Source: a virus
Taxonomy: Duplodnaviria; Heunggongvirae; Uroviricota; Caudoviricetes
IMG/VR virus record: IMGVR_UViG_3300001528_000192
Coordinates: 64,001-128,000 of that record
Strand: one strand, 5' to 3'
DNA length: 64,000 nucleotides
Part shown: positions 736 to 42,000 of the stretch, piece by piece
How positions within the stretch are numbered: position 1 is the stretch's first letter
How the letters are laid out: each line of letters starts with the position of its first letter
Notes under the pieces: generated by a model
The model's input: only the letters and a program-made list of their open reading frames with translations
Told to the model about the DNA's origin: nothing
The model's database searches: none
Made by a program: the position numbers and the translations under genes

Positions 736-2523
736 ATGACAGAAATTAAACAACAATTTATTCAAGTAAAAACAAAGTCCAACTTTGAGACTAGACTCAA
801 GGCTGGAGATGTTAAAGACACTTCAATAGCTTTTATTGAGGATTCAGATCAAATTTGGACCAAGGGAAAGTATTATTCAGCTGTTCCTAAAGAAGGTCAT
901 GAAAGGCAAATACTAGCATGGAAGGCTAGTGGAGAAGCTAAATGGGAAGATCTAGCAAATATGTTTACTGGTCTTGAGGAAGTATTAGCTTATGGTGTTC
1001 AGTTTGACATGACTGTAGCTGACCCACATCTTACTCGTATTGGTAATATGTCTCTTCACAAGTCACTTCCAATTCAGTCTCAATTGAAGGGTTGTATTGC
1101 ACAAGGAGATAAAGTAATCTATTGGTTAAACGAGTCTGATTGGAGATTTAGGAAAGAAGCTGTAACTCAGTCAGTAGAACTGACAGTTGCTGATGATACT
1201 TATACTATTGTAGCTGATGTATTCAGCACCCTACAATACGATAAGCAATGGGTAAAAGTAGATGGAGTAGCTTGCCAAATCAGTAGTATTGATACTAGTA
1301 CTAAGACTGCAACACTTCTTGCTAATGAGGAGCTTAAAGCTCTTTCTCTAGAGGGTGCTACAAAATCCATAGAACTTGGAGCAGTTTTGAATGGTTACGA
1401 CGGTACTGTACGAGTATATTGCCCAGCTTTCTATATTAAGTCTGCAGTAAATGATAGTGTAGCTAAAGTATGGTTATCTACTGTTAAGATTGATGATACT
1501 TACACTTATCAACCAGAAATCTTAGTTGATGCATATAGAAGTACAGTTCTAAATACTGTTCCAGAGAATATGGGATACCTTAGTACTCTTGTTGTGAATA
1601 GTGCTATTTCTGTGGTAAATACTAATACATATTGTAGAGGTGGTGGAAATAGAAGTGGTAATGATCAGTATTTAGCAACTGATCCATTTAGAACTGATCT
1701 AGGTAAGCCTAGAACTAATATTTCTAGAGCTACTATGAGGACATATTCTAGGAATGCCGATTCTCAGATGCTGAGTTATGACCAGTATAAGAATATATTC
1801 TATTGGCTCTATGTTGTAGAGTACGCTAACTTCAACTCTCAAGAAGCATACAATGCAACTCTCACGGATGATGGTTATCGTCAAGGAGGTATGGGAGCTA
1901 GTATTACTAATATGGGTAACTGGAACGAGTATAATGGATACTATCCGCTAACTCCTTGTGGTTATGGTAATACTCTTGGAAATGGAACTGGACTTGTGTC
2001 TTTAACTATTCCAGAATTTACTTATGGTTCTGACAGTACAGTAAGAGCTGCACAAACAATGCAAATGGCTAGATGGAGAGGATTTGATAACCCATTTGGA
2101 GACATTTGGACTAATCTAGACGGAATCATAATAGGCGCTGATGCAGACAATCATCCTAATAATATGAATTATGTATATACATGCCAGGATGCTAGTAAGT
2201 ATGCTGATGCTCTTAATGATTCATATGTTAAGGTAGGAGAGGAAATACATCAGGATGGATATACTAAGTCATTTGACCTAGGAGATGCCGCTCATATAAT
2301 TCCTCATGTTATGGGAGGTAATACTACCCAATACATCTGTGATTATCACTGGACAGGAAGTAAAGATAAGACCTTGCGTACGCTTATCGTGGGCGGTAAC
2401 GCTCATGACGGCGCGCCGGCGGGTCTCGGTAACTTCAACTCGTATGGCGGCGTGTCGCTCGCCTGGGCGTATCTCGGCTTCCGGTCGGTTTCTAGTTTCT
2501 TGTCTTTCTCTTCAGATAAATAA
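736..2523 (+). CDS. DGR target protein, 595 aa, probable tail fibre/receptor-binding protein with C-terminal CLec-like variable domain
   Basis: Uninterrupted ORF ending in TAA. C-terminus LIVGGNAHDGAPAGLGNFNSYGGVSLAWAYLGFR is the VR. Lies among tail genes. Confidence 0.9.
   Translation: MTEIKQQFIQVKTKSNFETRLKAGDVKDTSIAFIEDSDQIWTKGKYYSAVPKEGHERQILAWKASGEAKWEDLANMFTGLEEVLAYGVQFDMTVADPHLTRIGNMSLHKSLPIQSQLKGCIAQGDKVIYWLNESDWRFRKEAVTQSVELTVADDTYTIVADVFSTLQYDKQWVKVDGVACQISSIDTSTKTATLLANEELKALSLEGATKSIELGAVLNGYDGTVRVYCPAFYIKSAVNDSVAKVWLSTVKIDDTYTYQPEILVDAYRSTVLNTVPENMGYLSTLVVNSAISVVNTNTYCRGGGNRSGNDQYLATDPFRTDLGKPRTNISRATMRTYSRNADSQMLSYDQYKNIFYWLYVVEYANFNSQEAYNATLTDDGYRQGGMGASITNMGNWNEYNGYYPLTPCGYGNTLGNGTGLVSLTIPEFTYGSDSTVRAAQTMQMARWRGFDNPFGDIWTNLDGIIIGADADNHPNNMNYVYTCQDASKYADALNDSYVKVGEEIHQDGYTKSFDLGDAAHIIPHVMGGNTTQYICDYHWTGSKDKTLRTLIVGGNAHDGAPAGLGNFNSYGGVSLAWAYLGFRSVSSFLSFSSDK
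2377..2512 (+). repeat. DGR variable repeat (VR)
   Basis: Aligns ungapped to 2747-2882 (offset 370). 28 mismatches opposite TR adenines and 1 non-A mismatch (TR T2788 / VR G2418). Confidence 0.95.
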
Positions 2524-2556
2524 TTAGAGGCAAAAGGTAAAATAAATAAAAGAGAA

Positions 2557-2577
2557 AAGTAATTAACTTAATTACTT
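2557..2577. other. Near-perfect palindrome AAGTAATTAA-C-TTAATTACTT downstream of VR
   Basis: 10-bp inverted repeat with a 1-nt spacer, 45 nt after the VR end. Confidence 0.6.
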
Positions 2578-2607
2578 CCTTAGTGTGTAAACCCAGTAGA
2601 TGATAGT

Positions 2608-2630
2608 GAAGCAGGATTGATTCCTGCTTC
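2608..2630. other. Hairpin GAAGCAGGA-TTGAT-TCCTGCTTC (terminator or DGR cis element)
   Basis: Perfect 9-bp stem followed by CTATTGTTTACTTTT. Confidence 0.55.
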
Positions 2631-2746
2631 CTATTGTTTACTTTTAGAAACATTTTAGGAATGCATCCAACGAAAGTACGTGATTTTACTGATTTTCGTT
2701 GAGAGGATTGCTGGAACTCATGTACTAGTACTATTTGTCGATAAAC

Positions 2747-2882
2747 AAAACACTTATCGTAGGCAGTAACGCTAATAACGGCACGAATGCAGGTCTCAGT
2801 AACTTCAACTCGAATAACAGCGTGTCAAACACCTGGACGAATATCAGCTTCCAGTCAGTTTCTAGTTTCATGTCTTTCTCTT
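2747..2882 (+). repeat. DGR template repeat (TR), part of the non-coding DGR RNA
   Basis: Rich in AAC/AAT codons with 41 adenines. Identical to VR except at A positions and one T. Shares the pyrimidine-rich 3' end GTTTCTAGTTTC(A/T)TGTCTTTCTCTT (IMH-like). Confidence 0.95.
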
Positions 2883-3041
2883 TTATATTTCTTGTTTGGT
2901 TTCATCTCTCGGTGAAACTGACAAATTTTTCCTGAGGGTGTATATCCTTGCCACTTGGCAAAAGATAAAGTATATAAACAAACTGTGTTAGTAACGAAAG
3001 TGAACGCTCGGTTAGCATAATATAAAAATTGTGTTACTATA

Positions 3042-4295
3042 GTGAAGAGGGTTAAGGACTTGTATCCAAAAATCTATGACTAGAAGAACATAGAATTAGC
3101 CGATGAAAAGGCTAGAAAATGTAAGAGAAATAGATATGGAGTAAGAAAACACGACGAGCATAGAGATATAGATAACTATGCATTGCATTTAGCATTAAGA
3201 GAACAAGATTACCATACATCAGAATATACTACTTATAAAATATATGAACCAAAGGAACGTCTAATATTTAGACTTCCATATTATCCAGATAGGATTACTC
3301 ATCATGCAATTATGAATGTGATGGAACCAGTCTGGACTAAGGTATTCACGAGAGATACCTATTCTTGCATTAAGGGAAGAGGTATTCATAGTCTAGTATA
3401 GAAACTGCAGTAGGACTTAAGAAAGGATCCAGAAGGTACAAAGTATTGTTTGAAAATTGATATTAGGAAATTCTATCCTAGTATTAATCATGAAATTCTA
3501 AAAGAAATCCTAAGAAAGAAGATAAAGGATAAGGCTTTACTAAAACTTCTGGATGAAATTATAGATTCTGCTGATGGTGTACCAATAGGTAATTATTTAT
3601 CTTAGTTCTTTGCTAATCTGTATATGACATACTTTGACCACTGGATAAAGGAAGAATTGAAGGTCAAATACTACTACAGATATGCAGATGATATAGTTCT
3701 ACTATCTGATAGTAAGGCTAAATTAAGGTCATGGTTTCTTGCTATGAAAATATATCTTACTCAAGTATTAGACTTACACGTAAAAGACAATTATTAGATA
3801 TATCCTGTAGAGTCTAGAGGAATAGACTTCGTAGGATATGTTTGTTATCATAACCATACACTACTAAGGAAAAGTATTAAGCTAAGACTATGGAAATTAG
3901 TAGATGCTTATTGTAACAAGAAAATAAGTAAGGAGACTTATGTAGCACGCATGGCATCCTATTCTGGATGGCTGAAGTATTGTGATTCTAAGAACTTACT
4001 AAAGAAGATAGAGGGGAAAACTAATTTTAGATACTCAGGTTGGAATGGAATAAAGACTAGAATAAGTAAATTCAAAGGGAAATGGATTTATCTAGTTAAT
4101 ATAGTACCTCACAGAAAGTACTTTGTTCTATAGTTTATGTATAATAAGAGAGCATATGAAGTGAGAAGCTAGAACAAATAGCTCTTTATTTATCTAAATT
4201 CAATACCTAAGTATCCTGCATCAATTAAAATTGAACAATGTTTACAGCGACAAAAATTGAATCTACCATTAAGCCTAAAGGATTTGAATCACTAA
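3042..4295 (+). CDS. DGR reverse transcriptase, about 417 aa (GTG start; 8 in-frame TAG=Gln)
   Basis: Motifs KERLIFRLPYYPDRITHHAI, KIDIRKFYPSI, GVPIGNYLS(TAG)FFANLY and YRYADD (YADD 3681-3692). TAG at 3081, 3399, 3411, 3603, 3795, 4131, 4170, 4179. First TAA at 4293. Confidence 0.93.
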
Positions 4296-4951
4296 ATAAT
4301 GGTATTTGGTATTATAATTATGACGTAGAGGAGAAAACAGTTAAAGTATCCTCTATGGACGGAGAAGAAACAGATGAAACTAGATATTCATATGTCCAGG
4401 TAAGAATTTCTGGGGAACCGACCTTATCTAAGTGTTTTGAAGCAATACTTAAAGAGTATAAGGATGAACATAACACTAGTCTTTATGACGTACTCCTATC
4501 AGAGGGAACTAATGATCAGATAGAGGACATTAACTATAACATAAAAGTTGATTTCAATATTGCTCCAGAGAAATCTCCGTTAGAAAGAGCCAAAGAGTTA
4601 GTACTTAGGGAAATTGATCAATATGATACCTCTTCTAACGTTAATGGCTTCATGTTGAACGGAGTTCAGGTATGGCTAAGCAAAGACACCAGGGTAGGAC
4701 TCATGAACTCTATAACTATAGAGAAAAATGCAGGAAAGGAGGAATCGGTATTGTGGCTAAATGGAATTTGTATTACAGTTAACTGTGATGCTGCAATTCA
4801 AATGTTAAGTTCTTTGGAATTATATGCTTTAGCTTGTTATAATAAAACAGCAGAGCATAAACTAGCGGTGAGTCAACTAACTGATGCCTCTAAGGTAAAA
4901 GCTTACGACTATACTGTTGGTTATCCAGAGAAGCTATCATTCACAATCTAA
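4238..4951 (+). CDS. DUF4376-like tail-associated protein, 237 aa
   Basis: C-terminal IDQYDTSSNVNGF...WLSKDTRVGL...LELYALACYNKTAEHK...YDYTVGYPEKL pattern recalled for DUF4376 phage proteins. Confidence 0.7.
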   Translation: MFTATKIESTIKPKGFESLNNGIWYYNYDVEEKTVKVSSMDGEETDETRYSYVQVRISGEPTLSKCFEAILKEYKDEHNTSLYDVLLSEGTNDQIEDINYNIKVDFNIAPEKSPLERAKELVLREIDQYDTSSNVNGFMLNGVQVWLSKDTRVGLMNSITIEKNAGKEESVLWLNGICITVNCDAAIQMLSSLELYALACYNKTAEHKLAVSQLTDASKVKAYDYTVGYPEKLSFTI

Positions 4952-10900: not shown

Positions 10901-11974
10901 ATGGAAATAGGAAATAATGATGACATTGACTTCATCGACGAATTAGACGATGAACAGCAATCTAATGAGCAAAAGCAGGATCCAGAGCCTGATAATCATC
11001 AAGAACCTGAAAAGCAGGAGCCATAGGATCCAGACAATACAGATACTCCAGATCCGAACGAAGAAAAGGAGGATGATTTTCTTACCTCTCTTCTAAAATC
11101 TAGAGGAATTGAAGATAAATCTAAGATCAAGTTTGCAACAGAAGAAGGTGATGTAGAAGAGGTAGATTGGGATAGTCTAAGCAATGAAGACAAACTTAAC
11201 ATTCTTAGTTCTTCTGAAAGCACCCCTGAAAACGGCTTAGATGAGTCCGAAATTCAACTCATAAATGCTATTAGGAATAGTGGTATGAGTCCAGCTGAGT
11301 ATCTTCAATTTATAGGAAATGGAGAGGTTCAACGCTACATTCAAAACTCTCAACAACCACAATATGAAATTGATGCATATTCTGATGACGAGTTGTTCCT
11401 TATGGACTTTATGAGCAGAATGGGAGAGGTAACGGAAGATGAAGCAACCGAAGCTTTAGAAAGGGCTAAAGCTAATGAAGGTCTGTTTAAGAAGCAAATA
11501 GAAGCTATTCGTAACGAATATAAGCAAGCGGAACAGGAGAATCAAATGCAAGCACAGCTTGAGCAAGAATAGATTGCTCAATAGCAATATGACTAGTTTT
11601 CTGATTAGATAGTAGACGAAATCAACAATCTTAGAGAAATTCAAGGATTTGAGTTGAATATGGAGAATAATGACATGCAGGAACTTTATGACTTTATTAC
11701 TGGTCAAGATGCTGCTGGAAATAATTATTTAGCCAAAGCTTTATCGGATCCTCATATTCTAGTTAAGACTGCCTGGTTAGCTCTAAATGGTGATCAAATG
11801 ATCAACGATATTACAAGTTATTTCCAGAAGGAAATAGCAAGTGTTCGTAAAGAAAGTTATAAAAAAGGAGTTACTGATACTCAGAAGAAGATGGAGAAAA
11901 CTGATAAAGTTGTATTTAAGGATACACATACTAAGCCATCAAAGGAAGTATTCGACGACCTTGATGACCTTTAA
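10901..11974 (+). CDS. Acidic coiled-coil protein upstream of MCP, possible scaffolding protein, 357 aa
   Basis: Track fragments 11285 and 11654 are in the same frame and join via TAG. D/E/Q/P-rich N-terminus. Function inferred from position only. Confidence 0.7.
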
Positions 11975-12004
11975 TTTTTAAATTAATCTTTATATTTTAG
12001 TAAT

Positions 12005-13432
12005 ATGTTAGTTGCAAATTTTACAAGCAGAATCCCTACAATGGGTTAGACAAAAACATACGAGGACTGGTCTAAGTACCTCGGAAGTAAACCTCATCGT
12101 ATCGGTGTAGTTGCCCGTATGTACACAGATAATACTCTTAACTTCATTACTGATGGTTTGAGAAATATCTTCTACAAAGATGAGAAAGCAGACCAATTCC
12201 AACTTTCTAGTTCACTTTTGTTTGAGTGGATTGTTGAAACTAACAATATTAAGAAAGTTGAATTTGCAGAAGTTCCAACTGAAACAGGAGAAAATGGAAC
12301 AGAAATTACAATGGCATTTAGGGAAAATTACTACCAGAAATATGACATTTTCCGTATTGATAAGACAAAGCAGCAATGTCAGGTAGTGAGCCGCCCAATC
12401 CGTAAACGTGATGACTATTGGGAAGTTCAGGTACGCCTAATCGACAATGATTATGATACTATACTTGATACTGACGGATGTCAAGTAGGTGATACTACTA
12501 CATTCCAGTCTGTAGCTATGCCTGAACTATCAGAAGAGGGTTACTCAAAATTCCAGAGCCAAATGGAGCGTCATCGCAACTTTATGACTACATTCCGTGC
12601 AGATGCTAGCTGGTCTAGCTTGTTTGCTATTCAGGAAAATGTATTCATGAGCATTGCTGACGACAAGGATCAAACTAAATCTGAAGGTGTATATAAGATG
12701 CTCAAGAAGGAGAAGGAACTTCTTGATACATTTATGTATGCGATGAATACAGGTCTTACATTCAATAAGGGTAATATTGATGTAAACGGTAAGGCTACTA
12801 TTTCAGAGCCAGAAACTGGACGTCCAATTTATATTGGCGAAGGTCTTATTCCTCAGATTGAGGCTGCTGCAAACAAGTATTGCTATAGCAATAGACCTAA
12901 TCTACAATTATTTAACATGATTATGTCAGATATGGCTGACAAGGCTCAATCTGATACAGGTAACAAGTTTATCTTCATTGTTAACAGGAAGATGTGGAAC
13001 GATCTACAGATGACTCTTGGTGAGTATCTTGCTAACTATAGAACCGATGGTACTTATATGTACTCTAAGTCTGCAAATAAGGGCTTAGGTGGATATGTTA
13101 AGGTAGGTGCTACATTCGACACTTACGAATATGCAGGAAACCAAGTAAGCTTCGTAGTTGACCGTGCACTAACTCGCGAATATCCTACAAAGGGATACGG
13201 TGTGTGCATCGATTTGACTGCTGATAAAACTTCTGGTACTCCAGCTATTGCTAAATTTAGCTTGACTGGTAAGGACTTCATGACTAACAAGATTGTTGGT
13301 GTTGGAGGCTACGATGGAAAGAGTTCTGGTGAAGTTGCTAGCAACGTTGCTGGTTCTAAACTTGTTATGATGGGTTATGCAGGTGTTGCTGCATTTACTC
13401 CTTATAGAAGCGTAATCGTAAGAGAAGCTTAA
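12005..13432 (+). CDS. Major capsid protein (crAss-like), 475 aa (single TAG at codon 15)
   Basis: MLVANFTSRIPTMG(Q)TKTYEDWSKYLGSKPHRIGVVARMY... resembles crAss-like MCP N-termini. Size, position and the strong downstream terminator fit. Confidence 0.85.
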
Positions 13433-13459
13433 TAAAAATTAATAATAGAAACTAGATTG

Positions 13460-13497
13460 ACAGGAGGAGCCGTAAAACCCTCCTCCTGTATGTTTTT
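13460..13497 (+). terminator. Intrinsic terminator after MCP
   Basis: ACAGGAGGAG...CTCCTCCTGT 10-bp stem followed by ATGTTTTT. Confidence 0.75.
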
Positions 13498-13516
13498 AAT
13501 GATAATATGAACTAAT

Positions 13517-14389
13517 ATGGCAACAAATACTGGAGTAAAAAAGACAGTGACCAAAACTGATGTCGTTTTTGACGACAAAATAATTACATTAAGAAGCGTA
13601 TATGACAAGGCAAACATTAAATACATGATTATGCCTTGTAAGAATAAGTATGGACAATATCCAAGCTGTATTAAAAGAGTTAATTCTCAAGGTGACATGA
13701 TTATGAGTGAAAAGGAAAGGAATGAGTTCTCTGAGGGAACTGCAGTATTCTTCCCAGAAAATCACTTATTTGAAGTTACTAGTGGAAAAACCTACAACTT
13801 GAATGACATTTACGATAAAGCAGAGTGGGAAGCAATAGAAAACTGCCCTTATATTGCTAAGAGTCGTGATGCTCGTGACGAAAAAGGTAATCTAATCATA
13901 GACGGACCTAAGTCTACCCCTAGTAAGCCTACTAGGAATGGTGTAGCAGAGCTATATATTGATAGACCTGGTTTGGATACACAGCGTAGAGTATCTCATA
14001 AGCAGCTGATTCACAAGGCAGAATCGTTCATTTATGATGATCCACGTGGCGCAGAAGGTAATTTGAATATGGCTAGGATTCTTGGTAAGGATATGCGCAA
14101 TCAACCTACTGCTGACGTTATTGACTTTCTAGTTAGGGTAGCAGAAAAAGATCCTAACAAGATTATTAATCTTTATACGGGAGATGATATTTCTCTGCGA
14201 CTAACCTTTATAGAGGCTAAGGAGAAGAAGGTTATCTATATTAAGAATAAGCTGTACTTATATGGAGATAACATTGTTCTAGGAGCTACTGATGACGCAG
14301 TTATTGCATGGATGAAGGATCCAAAGAATCAGAAAGTCTTAGAATTAATTAAGAAAGATACCTACCCAGATTATTATAGGGCTGAGTAA
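13517..14389 (+). CDS. Hypothetical (head module) protein, 290 aa, TAG-free
   Basis: Long ORF ending in TAA. Confidence 0.85.
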   Translation: MATNTGVKKTVTKTDVVFDDKIITLRSVYDKANIKYMIMPCKNKYGQYPSCIKRVNSQGDMIMSEKERNEFSEGTAVFFPENHLFEVTSGKTYNLNDIYDKAEWEAIENCPYIAKSRDARDEKGNLIIDGPKSTPSKPTRNGVAELYIDRPGLDTQRRVSHKQLIHKAESFIYDDPRGAEGNLNMARILGKDMRNQPTADVIDFLVRVAEKDPNKIINLYTGDDISLRLTFIEAKEKKVIYIKNKLYLYGDNIVLGATDDAVIAWMKDPKNQKVLELIKKDTYPDYYRAE

Positions 14390-14460
14390 TCAGCATGTAT
14401 ATGTGTTGAGATATAGCATATACAAGCTAGATAAGACGATAAAATAGCTAAAAAAAAAAC

Positions 14461-15498
14461 ATGGCAATGACAGCTAGACAAGTTTGGGAAGGAATGTTGA
14501 CTGAGCTTAGTAAGGTGAATGCACCTAGTATGCTACTATAGGACTTCAACTACTTCTTTAATAAAGCTATAAACCAATACATTAATAAGAGGTATAATAT
14601 CTATGATATTAATCAGCAAACCTCGGATGATTTAAGAGTCTTAAAAGCTACTTCAATCCTAGAAGCTAAACTAGCTACCCAAAGTGAGCCTTTGAAGGCA
14701 CTAGTAAGCTTAGGAGCAGGAAAATCAAAGCTATTTGGGGCAACCTATGAAGTAACTCTACCTTCTGACTATCTCCATATACTCAACTGTGTATGCATTT
14801 ATAAGGTTAATAAGAATTGGAAGTGTTATAATGCAGGAGACTATGTGCAATTTGCTGCAAAGAGATTGACCGCCGACTCCTGGTCAGTAATTGTGAATGA
14901 TTACTACAATAGACCTCTTCCAGAAAGACCTTATTTCTATATACACAATATCAATATAAATAATACTGTTCCAACAAATCCTATAACATCAGATAATCCA
15001 AATGGTACAGATATGGCTACAAAATACGACGTAACCACAAGTACTTCATCTGTTGGAGGAGTTGATGGAACTGCAGGAAAATCTAACTTTAATAGAACCA
15101 TTACTCTAGGAGAACCAGACAAGCGTTCTGTAAGTACGGTTGAAAGAGATGCAGGTACTAGATATGGTAATGCTTCTAACGTTAGAATGGAAATTAGGTA
15201 TGGTCACGATAATAGTGTTTTCTCACTAGAGAAAGTATTCATTGACTACATTAAATCACCTCAGACAATTAGATTGACATAGGAACAGGTTAACCTTACA
15301 GAAGACACATCACAAATCATGGAATTTCCTGATTATGTATGTCAAGAGATTATAAATGAGCTGACAATGTTGGTCATGGAAAATACAGCTGACCCACGTT
15401 TACAAACTAATCCTACAGTTACACAGTCTATTGCAAACCCAGCTCAGCAATAGGCACCTCAACCACAACCTCAGCAAGCACAAGCCCAGAGGGGTTAA
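14461..15498 (+). CDS. crAss-like structural (head-tail/ring-type) protein, 345 aa (TAG at 14539, 15280, 15451)
   Basis: MTARQVWEGMLTELSKVNAPSMLL(Q)DFNYFFNKAINQYINKRYN. C-terminal PAQQ(Q)APQPQPQQAQ places TAG inside a Gln-rich tract. Confidence 0.8.
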
Positions 15499-15512
15499 AA
15501 ATAATTTAAATT

Positions 15513-16487
15513 ATGTTTCAATTTACTACAACTAACGTAATTAATTCAAACGTAGATCTTACAACTGGTAAACCACTATGGTCTGCACAGGATAAGACAG
15601 CTACTAAACCTGCAAGCCTTAACGTAAAAAGGGTAAACAACTTTAAGAGTGATAGCGTAGTTGCTATCTATAAAGCAGAGGCAAGTGATCCAGAATTGGC
15701 AAAAGTTACTCTAGATTTATCACAGCTCAATGGTAAAGATGGAGATTCCTTTAGACTTGCCATTTACGTAGGTCTTTCACAGGCATCACAGGATTCTCGT
15801 TATTCTAATGACATGATCTTAAAGGGTAAGCCATTTGCTGTAGACTTCGTTTGGAAGACTTCTGCAGCAGAGGTAGCAAAGGCTCTAGAGAAAACTATCA
15901 AGAAGTATAACGTACTTGTCTATGGAGATAAACTCTTGAATGTATCTTATAGTGGTACTTGTATTACTATAGAGGCTACTAATGAATACCAGAGGTTCAG
16001 AAAGGTAAATCTTGAGAAGTTTGATGAAGCAGCTCACTTTGGTATGGGAGAATACAACGTTGTAAGGTCTCTTGATGACCTTACAGAGAAAGATACTAAT
16101 GCTGAAGTTACTGCAACTGATGAAGGTTACTTCGTAGGTAAGGAAGGCTTCGGAACTTATTCATTCCTTCTTCACAATCTACGTCTTCCTACTTCAGCAC
16201 GTACTCGTGCATTTGGTATCAACCAAGATGAAACTCCTATAGTTGGAGCTAAGTATAATCAATATACTATCCACTATTGCGCTGACAGGGGCATTTTGGG
16301 ATTGAATGCTGTTGGTGATACTGTTAAGTCAGTTACAACTCATGTCTTCTATGTTAAGAGCGATCTTGCTGCAGATTTTGAAGTAGCTTTAAACAAGATT
16401 GCTCCGGACAATAAAATTGAGGAAGTAAAGACTCAGAAAGCTGAAGTTAGTAAGCCAGTAGTAACTAAGGCTTCTAAGAAAGATTGA
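15513..16487 (+). CDS. Probable structural protein, 324 aa, TAG-free
   Basis: Long ORF ending in TGA, followed by a terminator. Confidence 0.85.
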   Translation: MFQFTTTNVINSNVDLTTGKPLWSAQDKTATKPASLNVKRVNNFKSDSVVAIYKAEASDPELAKVTLDLSQLNGKDGDSFRLAIYVGLSQASQDSRYSNDMILKGKPFAVDFVWKTSAAEVAKALEKTIKKYNVLVYGDKLLNVSYSGTCITIEATNEYQRFRKVNLEKFDEAAHFGMGEYNVVRSLDDLTEKDTNAEVTATDEGYFVGKEGFGTYSFLLHNLRLPTSARTRAFGINQDETPIVGAKYNQYTIHYCADRGILGLNAVGDTVKSVTTHVFYVKSDLAADFEVALNKIAPDNKIEEVKTQKAEVSKPVVTKASKKD

Positions 16488-30819: not shown

Positions 30820-31155
30820 ATGAAAATTACTTATAAAAACGCAGTAAAACAGACTAAGAAGTTCCAGCAAGGTGGTCCAGTTGAAGCTCCTGCTGAAGGT
30901 GCAGAGGCTCCAGTATCTCAGGAAGAGACTCCTGAAGAACCAGCTCCTGAGGAAGAAGGTCAAGAGAATCCTATGATGCAATTAGCACAATTATTTGCAC
31001 AGGGATTACAGAATCAAGATTGTCAGATGCTCGCACAAGGAGCACAAATGTTCTTGCAGCTTGTAGAGCAGCCACAAGGTGGCGGTGCTGAGGAACCACA
31101 GGGTGAACCCGTTTTCCGTAGAGGAGGTCGCCTAGCTTATAGAATTAAGAAATAA
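30820..31155 (+). CDS. Small Gln/Glu/Pro-rich protein, 111 aa, TAG-free
   Basis: Flanked by a promoter-like element and a strong terminator. KKFQQGG at the N-terminus, FRRGG at the C-terminus. Confidence 0.85.
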   Translation: MKITYKNAVKQTKKFQQGGPVEAPAEGAEAPVSQEETPEEPAPEEEGQENPMMQLAQLFAQGLQNQDCQMLAQGAQMFLQLVEQPQGGGAEEPQGEPVFRRGGRLAYRIKK

Positions 31156-39000: not shown

Positions 39001-42000
39001 AGAAGGAGAGTCAGAAGAAGACTTTAGAGCAAGACAGAAAAAACATGAGGATGCAATACGAAAATATAACATTGACAACCAATTTAGATGGATTTAGGAA
39101 TTTGCAAAATAGCCTATAACCTCTACTGACTTCAGATATTTCGTATCTTAGGTAGGAGCGCTTAGAGGAGAATTACTTAAGTACTATCTTGATAACGTAG
39201 CTGGATAGGCAGATAGTGATATTAAGAAACATTGGTGGGAAATGCAAGTTACTCCTAAGGACGGACAAGAAGTTGACCCTAATGATGTTTCCGACATTGA
39301 TAAACAGAATAGTGACTTATATAATCTAATTCTAAAAATGGGAATCCAAGATGTCCCAGCCTTGAAGAAGGCCCTTAAAAGTAGAATTAATGAAACTGCC
39401 TCCTCAATAGTTGGAAGAAAGTATGAGACTGTTAGAGCCTTTTCCTCTGATCCAGACTTTATAAAGTCTCTAGAAGCTGCCTCTAGTTTATCAACTGATG
39501 AAAAGGAAGCTTTTAACATTCCTATAGACTATCAATTTAACAATGATGGATAGATAACTTATAAGGACATAGATGCTTTCATCAAATATGATATGGCGAG
39601 GAATGGTAATTCTTTAGAGGATGAATGGGATTACTTAGGGTTCTTTTCAGACAATTTAGAGCCTATACAAAAATTCTACGCAGAAGCAACTATAGATCCA
39701 TCTATTCTTAATTCTGAGGAAGCAGATACGATAGCTGATATATCAGAAGATAAATATAACGAGATGGTTGGAGAGGTATCCGACTAGATGTTAGATTCCT
39801 ACTTTAAGAATCTTGATACGTTCATAGAAGGAGTAAATAACTCTCCACAAACCAAGACTCTTAATACTCTAGAGGGAACTACTTTTGTAAACAATCCCGT
39901 TATTCCTCTTCTAAATAAGATTTCTAAGTTTTCTTCTAATAGCAATGTAAATGTTGAAGACTTATTATAGGATATATATAATACTTATAATTCTCAAGAA
40001 ACAAATGCAGACTTTTAGTTGAGTGATTCTTAGCTATCAAGCTTAAAGCAAGTTCTTGAAGATTTTAAGACTGCAGAATCATTTATATACGGAGCATCAG
40101 TTAGAGACACTGATGGAACTCCAGTAGGGCATAATAAGTCAATAAATGAGTTTGTGAAGAATCACAGTGATGTATTTGGAAAGACTGAAGAACTTCCTGA
40201 AATTAAGGAGAATGATGCCAATATGCTCTTAGGAGAAATCTCTGCATACAGGAGAGAGATTAATTCTTGGATTAATAAGCATGACTAGAATACTGGTTAG
40301 AGAGAAATAAAGTTTATTAAAGCTAACTAGGCTTTAACTAAAACAACTAGATAGTTCTTCGACTTAAATAGAAACGCATTTAAGATTTCACCTACTCTAG
40401 ATTTACTAGATGGATATGAAGATCTAACTTTGGACGATTCTCTATCATCTATGGTAGCATTACAGGAGTTACTATATAATAATAGAAGAAAGTCAAAAAT
40501 GTCTACCTCAGAGATTCTTGACAGTCTCTCCAAGAGTATGTTTGATGTTAATCAAGTACTTGGCTAGGAATCTGCTAAGTTAGATGAGAACCTAACTTAT
40601 GATAAGTTAACCAACTATGATAAATTCTAGCTATTGGTTGGAGCTATTTCCGCTAGTACAATAAAGTATTACAAGGGATTAAAGTCATTCTTAGATGGAA
40701 ACACTAATATGGCCCCAATATCTATGCAAGAATACGTGTCTAAACTAGCCTATGCATAGAAGGAAAATCCTAAAGTGATAAATGAAGCACTAGATTGGAT
40801 TAAGGCGAAAACTGGCTCTAAAATGGATGTAGCACATAATACTTCTATAGTTACAGGATTAGGAGGAAGTGGTAAAACATTTGCAGTAGCTAGACTAAAT
40901 CTTGGTACAGGAGCTGATACGTGGGTTTCTGGTCCTACTTAGAGTTAGGTTGATAACTTAAAGAACAGTCTTCCAGATAGCACTGAAAAAACAAAGGCAG
41001 ACTTATTTAGTGTAATCTTTGGAGGAAAAGCACCTAATATTAAGGATGTATATACTACTTAGAAGGAAAATGGGGGAACCATAGTTAATTTGAAGGATAA
41101 CCTAGGTATAAAGAAGATAGATAATGCACCTAAACATCTTGTTATAGATGAGGCAACCCACTTTAGTACTCCTGAGTTACTCTTAGTGTCTAAATTCTGT
41201 GACCTCAATGGAATTAACTTAATTCTTATAGGAGATGAGCATTAGAATGGTTACAACAAAAACAATATTGGAAATATTGAAGAAAACTCTTTAATAGCTT
41301 GGAGATCTCCATCCCTATATCTATCGCTAAGAAACGGAAATGCCTTAAAGGTTTCTAATTAGCAGCCTCTTCTTTCTGTAATTGACAAACTATCTATTAG
41401 TGATCCTGGAACTCTTGGAAATACTGTATATGAGCAAACATTTAAGAACATCCAACTTCGTTACTACAATAAAGATACGTTTAGTGGGGAAATGATTACT
41501 GATACAGTTCCATCTGATGTACTTAGTAAAATTCCTAAGGATGTCTCAGTTGGCTTTATAGGAGACTCTTCATCTACTGAATACCAAAAATTAAGAGATG
41601 CTGGATTAAAGGTTAGTGATCCTATGTCTCCTCTTGACGTTCAGGGAAGAGAGTTTGATTACGTTGTGGTTGATAAAAAATGGAAGTTGGATTTAGGAGA
41701 TAACTGGAACAACAACAACATAAATATAAATCAGTTTGCAAAAGATCTATATACACTAATTACAAGAAGTACAAAGGGAACTATTCTTATAGATAATGGA
41801 TTGTCAGACATAATACAAAGTGCTGAATCAGAGTTTAATGGAGAATATTCAGGATTATCCACCTCAGTTTAGAGATTTAGGGAAAAGAGACTTCCAGAAA
41901 TTGAGAAAGCCTTAGCAGACAATCAGGAAGTGTCTGAAGAACCTTAGGGGGATTCTACACCTGATTCAGATTAGCCTACGAATGAACCCGCAGTTATAGG

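Follow-up and report, generated by a model that had tools for sequence, protein, structure and literature searches.

The diversity-generating retroelement (DGR) at positions 736 to 4295 of the stretch of DNA analyzed here is very probably an ordinary DGR of a phage late module, the in-frame TAG codons of its reverse transcriptase (RT) gene reflecting the general recoding of late genes and not a DGR-specific control layer. The stretch, hereafter the window, is 64,000 nucleotides long and corresponds to bases 64001-128000 of a 174,147-bp genome (GC 36%) of a Caudoviricetes virus (IMG/VR record IMGVR_UViG_3300001528_000192). An earlier note on this DNA had observed that the RT gene contains eight TAG codons while the gene diversified by the element contains none, and had proposed that this asymmetry would tie mutagenic retrohoming to a genetic-code switch, as a further layer of control. 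All of its counts were confirmed; a selected control layer specific to the DGR was not supported, because the RT carries TAG at the local late-gene level and the target genes of relatives carry TAG, the two outcomes that the note had itself named beforehand as speaking against the idea.

The element is a canonical DGR in which a target gene with a variable region (VR) at its 3' end is followed by a template region (TR) and the RT gene, and in which there is no Avd gene. Its features are:

736..2523, plus strand: target gene, 595 aa, encoding a probable receptor-binding tail fibre; VR at the 3' end; free of TAG.
2380..2512, plus strand: VR, the last ~48 codons of the target gene; a 133-nt ungapped match to the TR.
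2608..2630, plus strand: terminator-like hairpin downstream of the target gene, a 9-bp stem followed by a T-rich tail; putative role.
2750..2882, plus strand: TR, 133 nt with 38 A.
2896..2921, plus strand: hairpin with an 11-bp stem directly after the TR, in the TR-RT spacer; possible role in the DGR RNA.
3042..4295, plus strand: RT gene, 417 aa, GTG start; open only with TAG as a sense codon.
4014..4295, plus strand: C-terminal extension of the RT, ~93 aa past the core that aligns to PDB entry 8ub7.

TR and VR differ at 26 of 133 positions, and 25 of these 26 mismatches fall on TR adenines. The TR is rich in AAY (AAC/AAT) codons and has no in-frame stop, and the VR ends 11 nt 5' of the target stop codon. 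The target open reading frame (ORF) was called whether TAG was taken as stop or as sense; the protein matched PHROG 5302 ('tail protein') with E=4e-74, and homology to the DGR targets at 40 related loci spans its residues 216-586. The RT matched Pfam RVT_1 (1e-17) and PHROG 1423 (5e-112), and its best solved relative is PDB 8ub7, 'Reverse transcriptase' (9e-47), over residues 2-324, where the match ends; we take this entry to be the enzyme of Bordetella phage BPP-1. Neither the 226-nt spacer between target and TR nor the 159-nt spacer between TR and RT contains a plausible ORF for avd, the only spacer ORFs being ones that overlap the TR and have no family matches. Avd is not universal, and it is present in just two Zeta-crAss DGRs (PMC12386605).

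The element lies in a genome whose late genes read TAG as glutamine. Taking TAG as a sense codon raised the plus-strand ORF coverage of the first 15 kb to 0.86 from its standard-code value of 0.44, whereas the same change for TGA gave 0.45. We called genes with TAG as sense and expressed the TAG share of a gene as TAG over all Gln-type codons (TAG+CAA+CAG). Between orthologues TAG swaps with CAA and CAG, and in-frame TAG codons stand at conserved glutamine positions. ARAGORN found 22 tRNAs on the minus strand, including, outside the window at genome c[39763-39835], a tRNA(cta) whose D-arm is like that of the phage's own tRNA-Gln. Recoded codons are dense in the virion-gene block and sparse on the minus strand: in minus-strand genes TAG accounts for 0.13 of the Gln-type codons (106/787), and 68 of the 91 such genes that are at least 100 aa long lack it altogether, as against 493 of 1246 (0.40), or 1.87% of all codons, in the plus-strand late block (~44-126 kb; statistics over 43 genes of at least 100 aa). 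This block includes terminase, portal, tail proteins, the DGR, the major capsid protein, and two proteins of 2955 and 3251 aa; the TAG share reaches 17/28 in TerL, 28/54 in the portal, and ~50% in the giant cargo proteins, and 38 of the 43 genes have at least one TAG and so need read-through. Giant late-block proteins of this kind are typical of crAss-like phages, and crAss-like phages are also the nearest named relatives of the RT, while a search of the GenBank phage collection with the major capsid protein returned two unannotated records only. Because of its ~174-kb size, its giant late-block proteins, the crAss-like relatives of its RT, and its agreement with the features described in PMC12386605, we conclude that the phage is Zeta-crAss-like. 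It decodes late-gene TAG codons as glutamine and has a tRNA(CUA) gene of its own. Late-gene recoding of TAG to glutamine is known in crAss-like phages (PMC7886860; bioRxiv 10.1101/2021.08.26.457843).

The RT gene cannot be expressed under the standard code. It has eight in-frame TAG codons (codons 14, 120, 124, 188, 252, 364, 377, and 380, at window positions 3081, 3399, 3411, 3603, 3795, 4131, 4170, and 4179), and under translation table 11 its frame breaks into fragments of at most 72 aa, the only table 11 ORFs within 2524-4237 being of 66, 72, and 60 aa. With the first TAG as early as codon 14, translation would terminate after 13 residues, confirming that synthesis of the RT requires amber suppression. 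The TAG at codon 188 (3603-3605) encodes the Q of IGNYLSQ (residues 182-188), the [I/L]GxxxSQ motif, and this glutamine provides a built-in proof that TAG means Gln.

Nevertheless, the TAG content of the RT gene is that of its surroundings. TAG makes up 8 of its 14 Gln-type codons against 0.40 in the late block (binomial upper tail p=0.14), and 1.9% of all its codons against 1.87% in the block. We also compared the RT with those of 20 TAG-recoded relatives, representing ~7 lineages at <75% identity and examined as 15-kb loci rather than whole genomes; at four loci (L005, L018, L037, and L077) no TR/VR pair was found even at relaxed thresholds, and they contributed RT counts but no target counts. 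Among the recoded relatives the RT TAG shares range from 0.27 to 0.80 and the local backgrounds from 0.21 to 0.65. The positions of the RT TAG codons turn over freely: the codon for the SQ-motif glutamine is TAG in 11, CAA in 8, and CAG in 1 of the 20 recoded RTs, and the TAG at codon 14 occurs in this genome alone. We conclude that the RT TAG codons are ordinary glutamine codons at late-module density; the idea that the early TAG is a deliberate gate was rejected because codon-14 TAG is unique to this genome.

What the earlier note had said about timing stands in part. That DGR activity in a standard-code host depends on the suppressor holds, whereas confinement to the late phase is nothing special to the DGR, 38 of the 43 late-block genes being in the same position. 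We infer that the host uses the standard code and that the suppressor acts late, in which case the RT, like the virion module, would be made only once the phage tRNA(CUA) is active, and both the synthesis of cDNA and its homing into replicating genomes would take place late. The RT would depend on the suppressor exactly as the terminase, portal, tail, and cargo proteins do, and the late timing of the DGR would follow from the location of its RT in the late module and not from a separate layer.

The TAG-free target requires closer attention. Its 24 glutamine codons (16 CAA, 8 CAG, and 0 TAG) represent the strongest TAG depletion in the late block (p=5.6e-6; 2.4e-4 after correction for 43 genes). 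However, given the TAG rate of its orthologues (7/71), 0/24 has a probability of p=0.08. The orthologues are the targets at locus L003 (90% protein identity to the window target; 3 TAG, 3/25), at L004 (88%; 2 TAG, 2/22), and at L014 (66%; 2 TAG, 2/24). The TAG codons of the L003 and L004 targets fall at four alignment columns, at which the window has CAA or CAG twice, GAG once, and GGT once. More distant recoded targets have TAG at 9 of 37 (L015), 6 of 14 (L032), 5 of 13 (L039), 8 of 18 (L040), 10 of 24 (L047), and 13 of 20 (L020) Gln-type codons, and at L020 the asymmetry is reversed, with 13/20 in the target (L020:4850-6676) versus 3/11 in the RT (L020:7001-8131). In total, the targets at 14 of 14 related loci with an identified target contain 2-13 TAG codons, some of these loci being near-identical to each other. 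Thus, outside the clade with the 595-aa target, recoded DGR targets carry TAG as freely as their neighbours, and the TAG-free state of the window target is not conserved, as both its orthologues and other recoded DGR targets have TAG. The TAG-free target is instead the extreme of a class of TAG-poor virion genes to which the major capsid gene and those around it also belong.

Standard-code sister phages point in the same direction. In these lineages (L016-L031, L038, L041, L042, and L064) the RT is 57-59% identical to that of the window, C-terminal extension included, the target-VR-TR-RT layout is kept wherever a TR/VR pair was found, and neither RT nor target contains a TAG. Because these sisters have the same cassette and no TAG, the retroelement needs no code gate.

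DGR retrohoming takes place on DNA, whether or not the target is translated, and the asymmetry between RT and target therefore has no functional meaning for retrohoming. The earlier note was right that the target ORF is open under either code, but this has no evident functional consequence: other virion proteins contain TAG, and a fibre would be useless before the TAG-containing capsid, portal, and tail proteins have been made.

Several observations fit less easily with recoding at a general level and weigh against our preferred explanation. Within this genome, the contrast in TAG content between RT and target is pronounced (Fisher p=6e-5). In the clade formed by the window, L003, L004, and L014, TAG makes up 7 of 95 Gln-type codons in the targets versus 27 of 53 in the RTs, and members of the 595-aa target family remain poor in TAG at identities as low as 66%. 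Some selective force may therefore act on the TAG content of targets in this clade, and we considered what such a force could be.

The alternative that survives best is that TAG content is tuned to the amount of protein, such that, with suppression working less well than normal decoding, TAG has been removed from proteins made in bulk (the capsid module and some fibres), whereas enzymes required in traces, such as the RT and the terminase, tolerate many. We regard this as possible, if somewhat doubtful, as the explanation for the asymmetry. It is consistent with the major capsid gene, in which TAG makes up 1 of 19 Gln-type codons here and which has 0, 0, 1, and 3 TAG codons in four recoded relatives, and with the TAG-poor capsid-side block at 10901-16487 as a whole (5/33, 1/19 in the major capsid gene, 0/6, 3/23, and 0/9). 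The low TAG content of the 595-aa target family across 66-90% identity agrees with it as well, as does the GC content at third codon positions (GC3) of the target, which equals that of its neighbours and argues against recent import. However, the targets at L032, L040, L047, and L020 are at or above the background TAG level, and the portal and giant cargo proteins, which are structural too, have TAG at about half of their Gln-type codons. TAG usage is thus heterogeneous within the late module, with consistently TAG-poor capsid genes, and the TAG poverty on the capsid side suggests selection against TAG in abundant proteins. Similarly, the window encodes at 30820-31155 a 111-aa protein of 15% Gln with TAG at 0 of 17 Gln-type codons.

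A related alternative, which we consider unlikely, concerns the fibre clade only: if suppression were leaky or slow, synthesis of the fibre would be efficient, or a little earlier than that of the RT, and DGR cDNA would be produced late and at a low dose. In that case the output of RT would scale approximately with suppression efficiency to the 8th power, which could matter for the number of progeny genomes that are mutated.

We also considered that the target, or its N-terminal part, was recently recombined in from a standard-code relative and has yet to accumulate TAG. Tail-fibre modules are commonly exchanged, and the targets of the standard-code sisters are 52-54% identical over residues 216-586. 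Moreover, the neighbouring 237-aa fibre-like gene that adjoins the RT (4238-4951) has no TAG here and four TAG codons each in L003 and L004. On the other hand, the TAG-poor state extends down to 66% identity (L014) and is hence old, the GC3 of the target (0.265) matches that of the block, and in the BLAST ranking the nearest target homologues all come from recoded genomes. Recent import was accordingly mostly rejected, on the TAG-poor L014 target and the matching GC3, and appears quite improbable; persistent selection against TAG fits the target family better.

Finally, the gate proper, i.e. that RT TAG codons were selected to limit retrohoming to the late phase with the target kept TAG-free and thereby translatable under both codes, is highly improbable: in its favour are the RT with its eight TAG codons, the first as early as codon 14, the TAG-free target, and the TAG-poor targets of the four-member clade relative to their own RTs, and against it are the local TAG density of the RT, a codon-14 TAG in 1 of 20 recoded RTs, an SQ codon that alternates between TAG, CAA, and CAG, at least two TAG codons in every related target (up to 13 of 20) with reversed asymmetry at L020 and L032, standard-code sisters with the same RT and layout, and a retrohoming reaction that does not need target translation in a virion whose other parts need suppression.

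Returning to the ordinary, late-module DGR, we find that the element has evidently been active in this lineage. The TRs of the window and L004 differ at 2 of 133 positions (98.5% identical), whereas their VRs differ at 22 sites, 20 of which are TR adenines; the 300 nt upstream of the VR have 32 differences. Divergence of the VR from that of L004 mainly at template adenines, next to a conserved TR, is what ongoing mutagenic retrohoming leaves behind in a lineage, and the TAG-containing RT is therefore evidently functional. In code-15 Bacteroides phages, time-resolved diversification of tail genes by DGRs with recoded RTs has been described (Lou et al., bioRxiv 10.1101/2023.08.07.552389), and this diversification in vivo shows that recoded DGR RTs work in nature. 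Of the RTs compared here, the frame of the L004 RT stops early, at 384 aa.

The element and its host genome resemble systems that have been described. The Zeta-crAss DGR phages of PMC12386605 are, like this one, ~175 kb in size, carry a tRNA-Sup(CTA), and show amber suppression in their late genes. Their DGRs likewise combine a fibre gene, whose VR is C-terminal, with a TR and a full-length RT bearing the GxxxSQ motif, mostly without Avd. The present genome matches the amber-suppressing, DGR-bearing Zeta-crAss genomes tabulated there in size, GC, number of tRNAs, presence of a CTA suppressor, amber suppression, and DGR. Amber codons occur in the RT gene of 7 of the 18 Zeta-crAss cassettes in that study, which regards them as a difficulty for annotation and draws no comparison of TAG content between RT and target. 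The code-15 Bacteroides phages I57, I79, and I123_PsAC1 (bioRxiv 10.1101/2023.08.07.552389) also have in-frame TAG in the DGR RT but are ~100 kb and not of Zeta size, and no contrast between RT and target was drawn for them.

Recoded crAss-like, Lak, and other gut phages (PMC7886860; bioRxiv 10.1101/2021.08.26.457843) share with this phage the reading of TAG as Gln and a phage-encoded suppressor tRNA, and in them recoded codons cluster in genes for structure and lysis and are rare among replication genes. DGRs and reverse transcriptases are mentioned in neither of these two reports. Borges et al. (bioRxiv 10.1101/2021.08.26.457843) argue the same late-suppression logic for a recoded intron homing endonuclease, and found only lysis and tail-tube families to be significantly enriched in TAG in crAss-like phages; the RT of the present element is not TAG-enriched either. 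In the prototype DGR of phage BPP-1 (mtd-avd-TR-brt), as in this element, adenine-specific mutagenesis is directed to the 3' end of a receptor-binding tail protein gene. Unlike BPP-1, the present element has no avd and hence no accessory gene between target and TR, its RT is ~93 aa longer at the C-terminus, and TAG encodes Gln whereas BPP-1 uses the standard code.

Thus, amber codons in DGR RTs and late-gene recoding have both been published already, and the link between them in the form of a gate, for which we found no precedent in the literature searched, was tested here and is unsupported. Had the gate held, a code switch wired specifically to a mutator would have been a new regulatory principle for DGRs. 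What the data provide is a well-quantified example in which the TAG density of DGR RTs in recoded phages is the neutral one of their surroundings; they also imply that pipelines for finding DGRs need translation with code 15 for such phages.

Three of the eight TAG codons lie in the C-terminal extension of the RT, whose coding sequence shares 58 nt with the following gene. Relatives, recoded and standard-code alike, match it to residues 397-417, and a Pfam search of the extension returned no families. As for the two hairpins at 2608-2630 and 2896-2921, they may represent transcript ends or DGR RNA structure; terminator-like hairpin sites number four in the 2-kb region, compared to 0.5 expected from shuffles.

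To characterize the fold of the target, residues 216-595 were modeled with AlphaFold 2 (AF2) from a 19-sequence alignment. The model has a mean predicted local distance difference test (pLDDT) score of 53, with values <50 in the VR part, and a Foldseek search of this low-pLDDT model against PDB gave nothing at E<=0.001, FGE chains being the only matches, at E~6. Searches of Pfam with the target C-terminus and of solved structures with the target sequence gave no matches. A protein language model led to clusters in which 14% of the members carry FGE-sulfatase, while CLec domains have been reported for Zeta-crAss fibres (PMC12386605).

DNA searches with the suppressor tRNA of this phage gave weak or no matches in five relatives and no match in the complete 174.8-kb genome G001, which is that of the closest relative (L003) and clearly TAG-recoded; the suppressor of G001 may be divergent or absent. 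In the present genome, the suppressor tRNA(CUA) is separate from the main tRNA array (genome 19-33 kb) and lies right downstream, and on the same strand, of three TAG-rich minus-strand genes (L002:3763-7691, genome 39763-43691). These genes contain 16, 17, and 10 TAG codons, and one of them matches tail-lysin and endolysin PHROGs, an arrangement that resembles the 'code-change module next to the lysis cassette' of Borges et al. The major capsid gene is interrupted in two relatives: that of the closest relative (L095, G001:C1:133091-135511) holds a ~1 kb insertion across which its 813-aa frame stays open, and that of another relative is in four pieces (G005:C1:16003-20166). Introns or inteins, which have been reported in crAss-like phages, could account for these interruptions.

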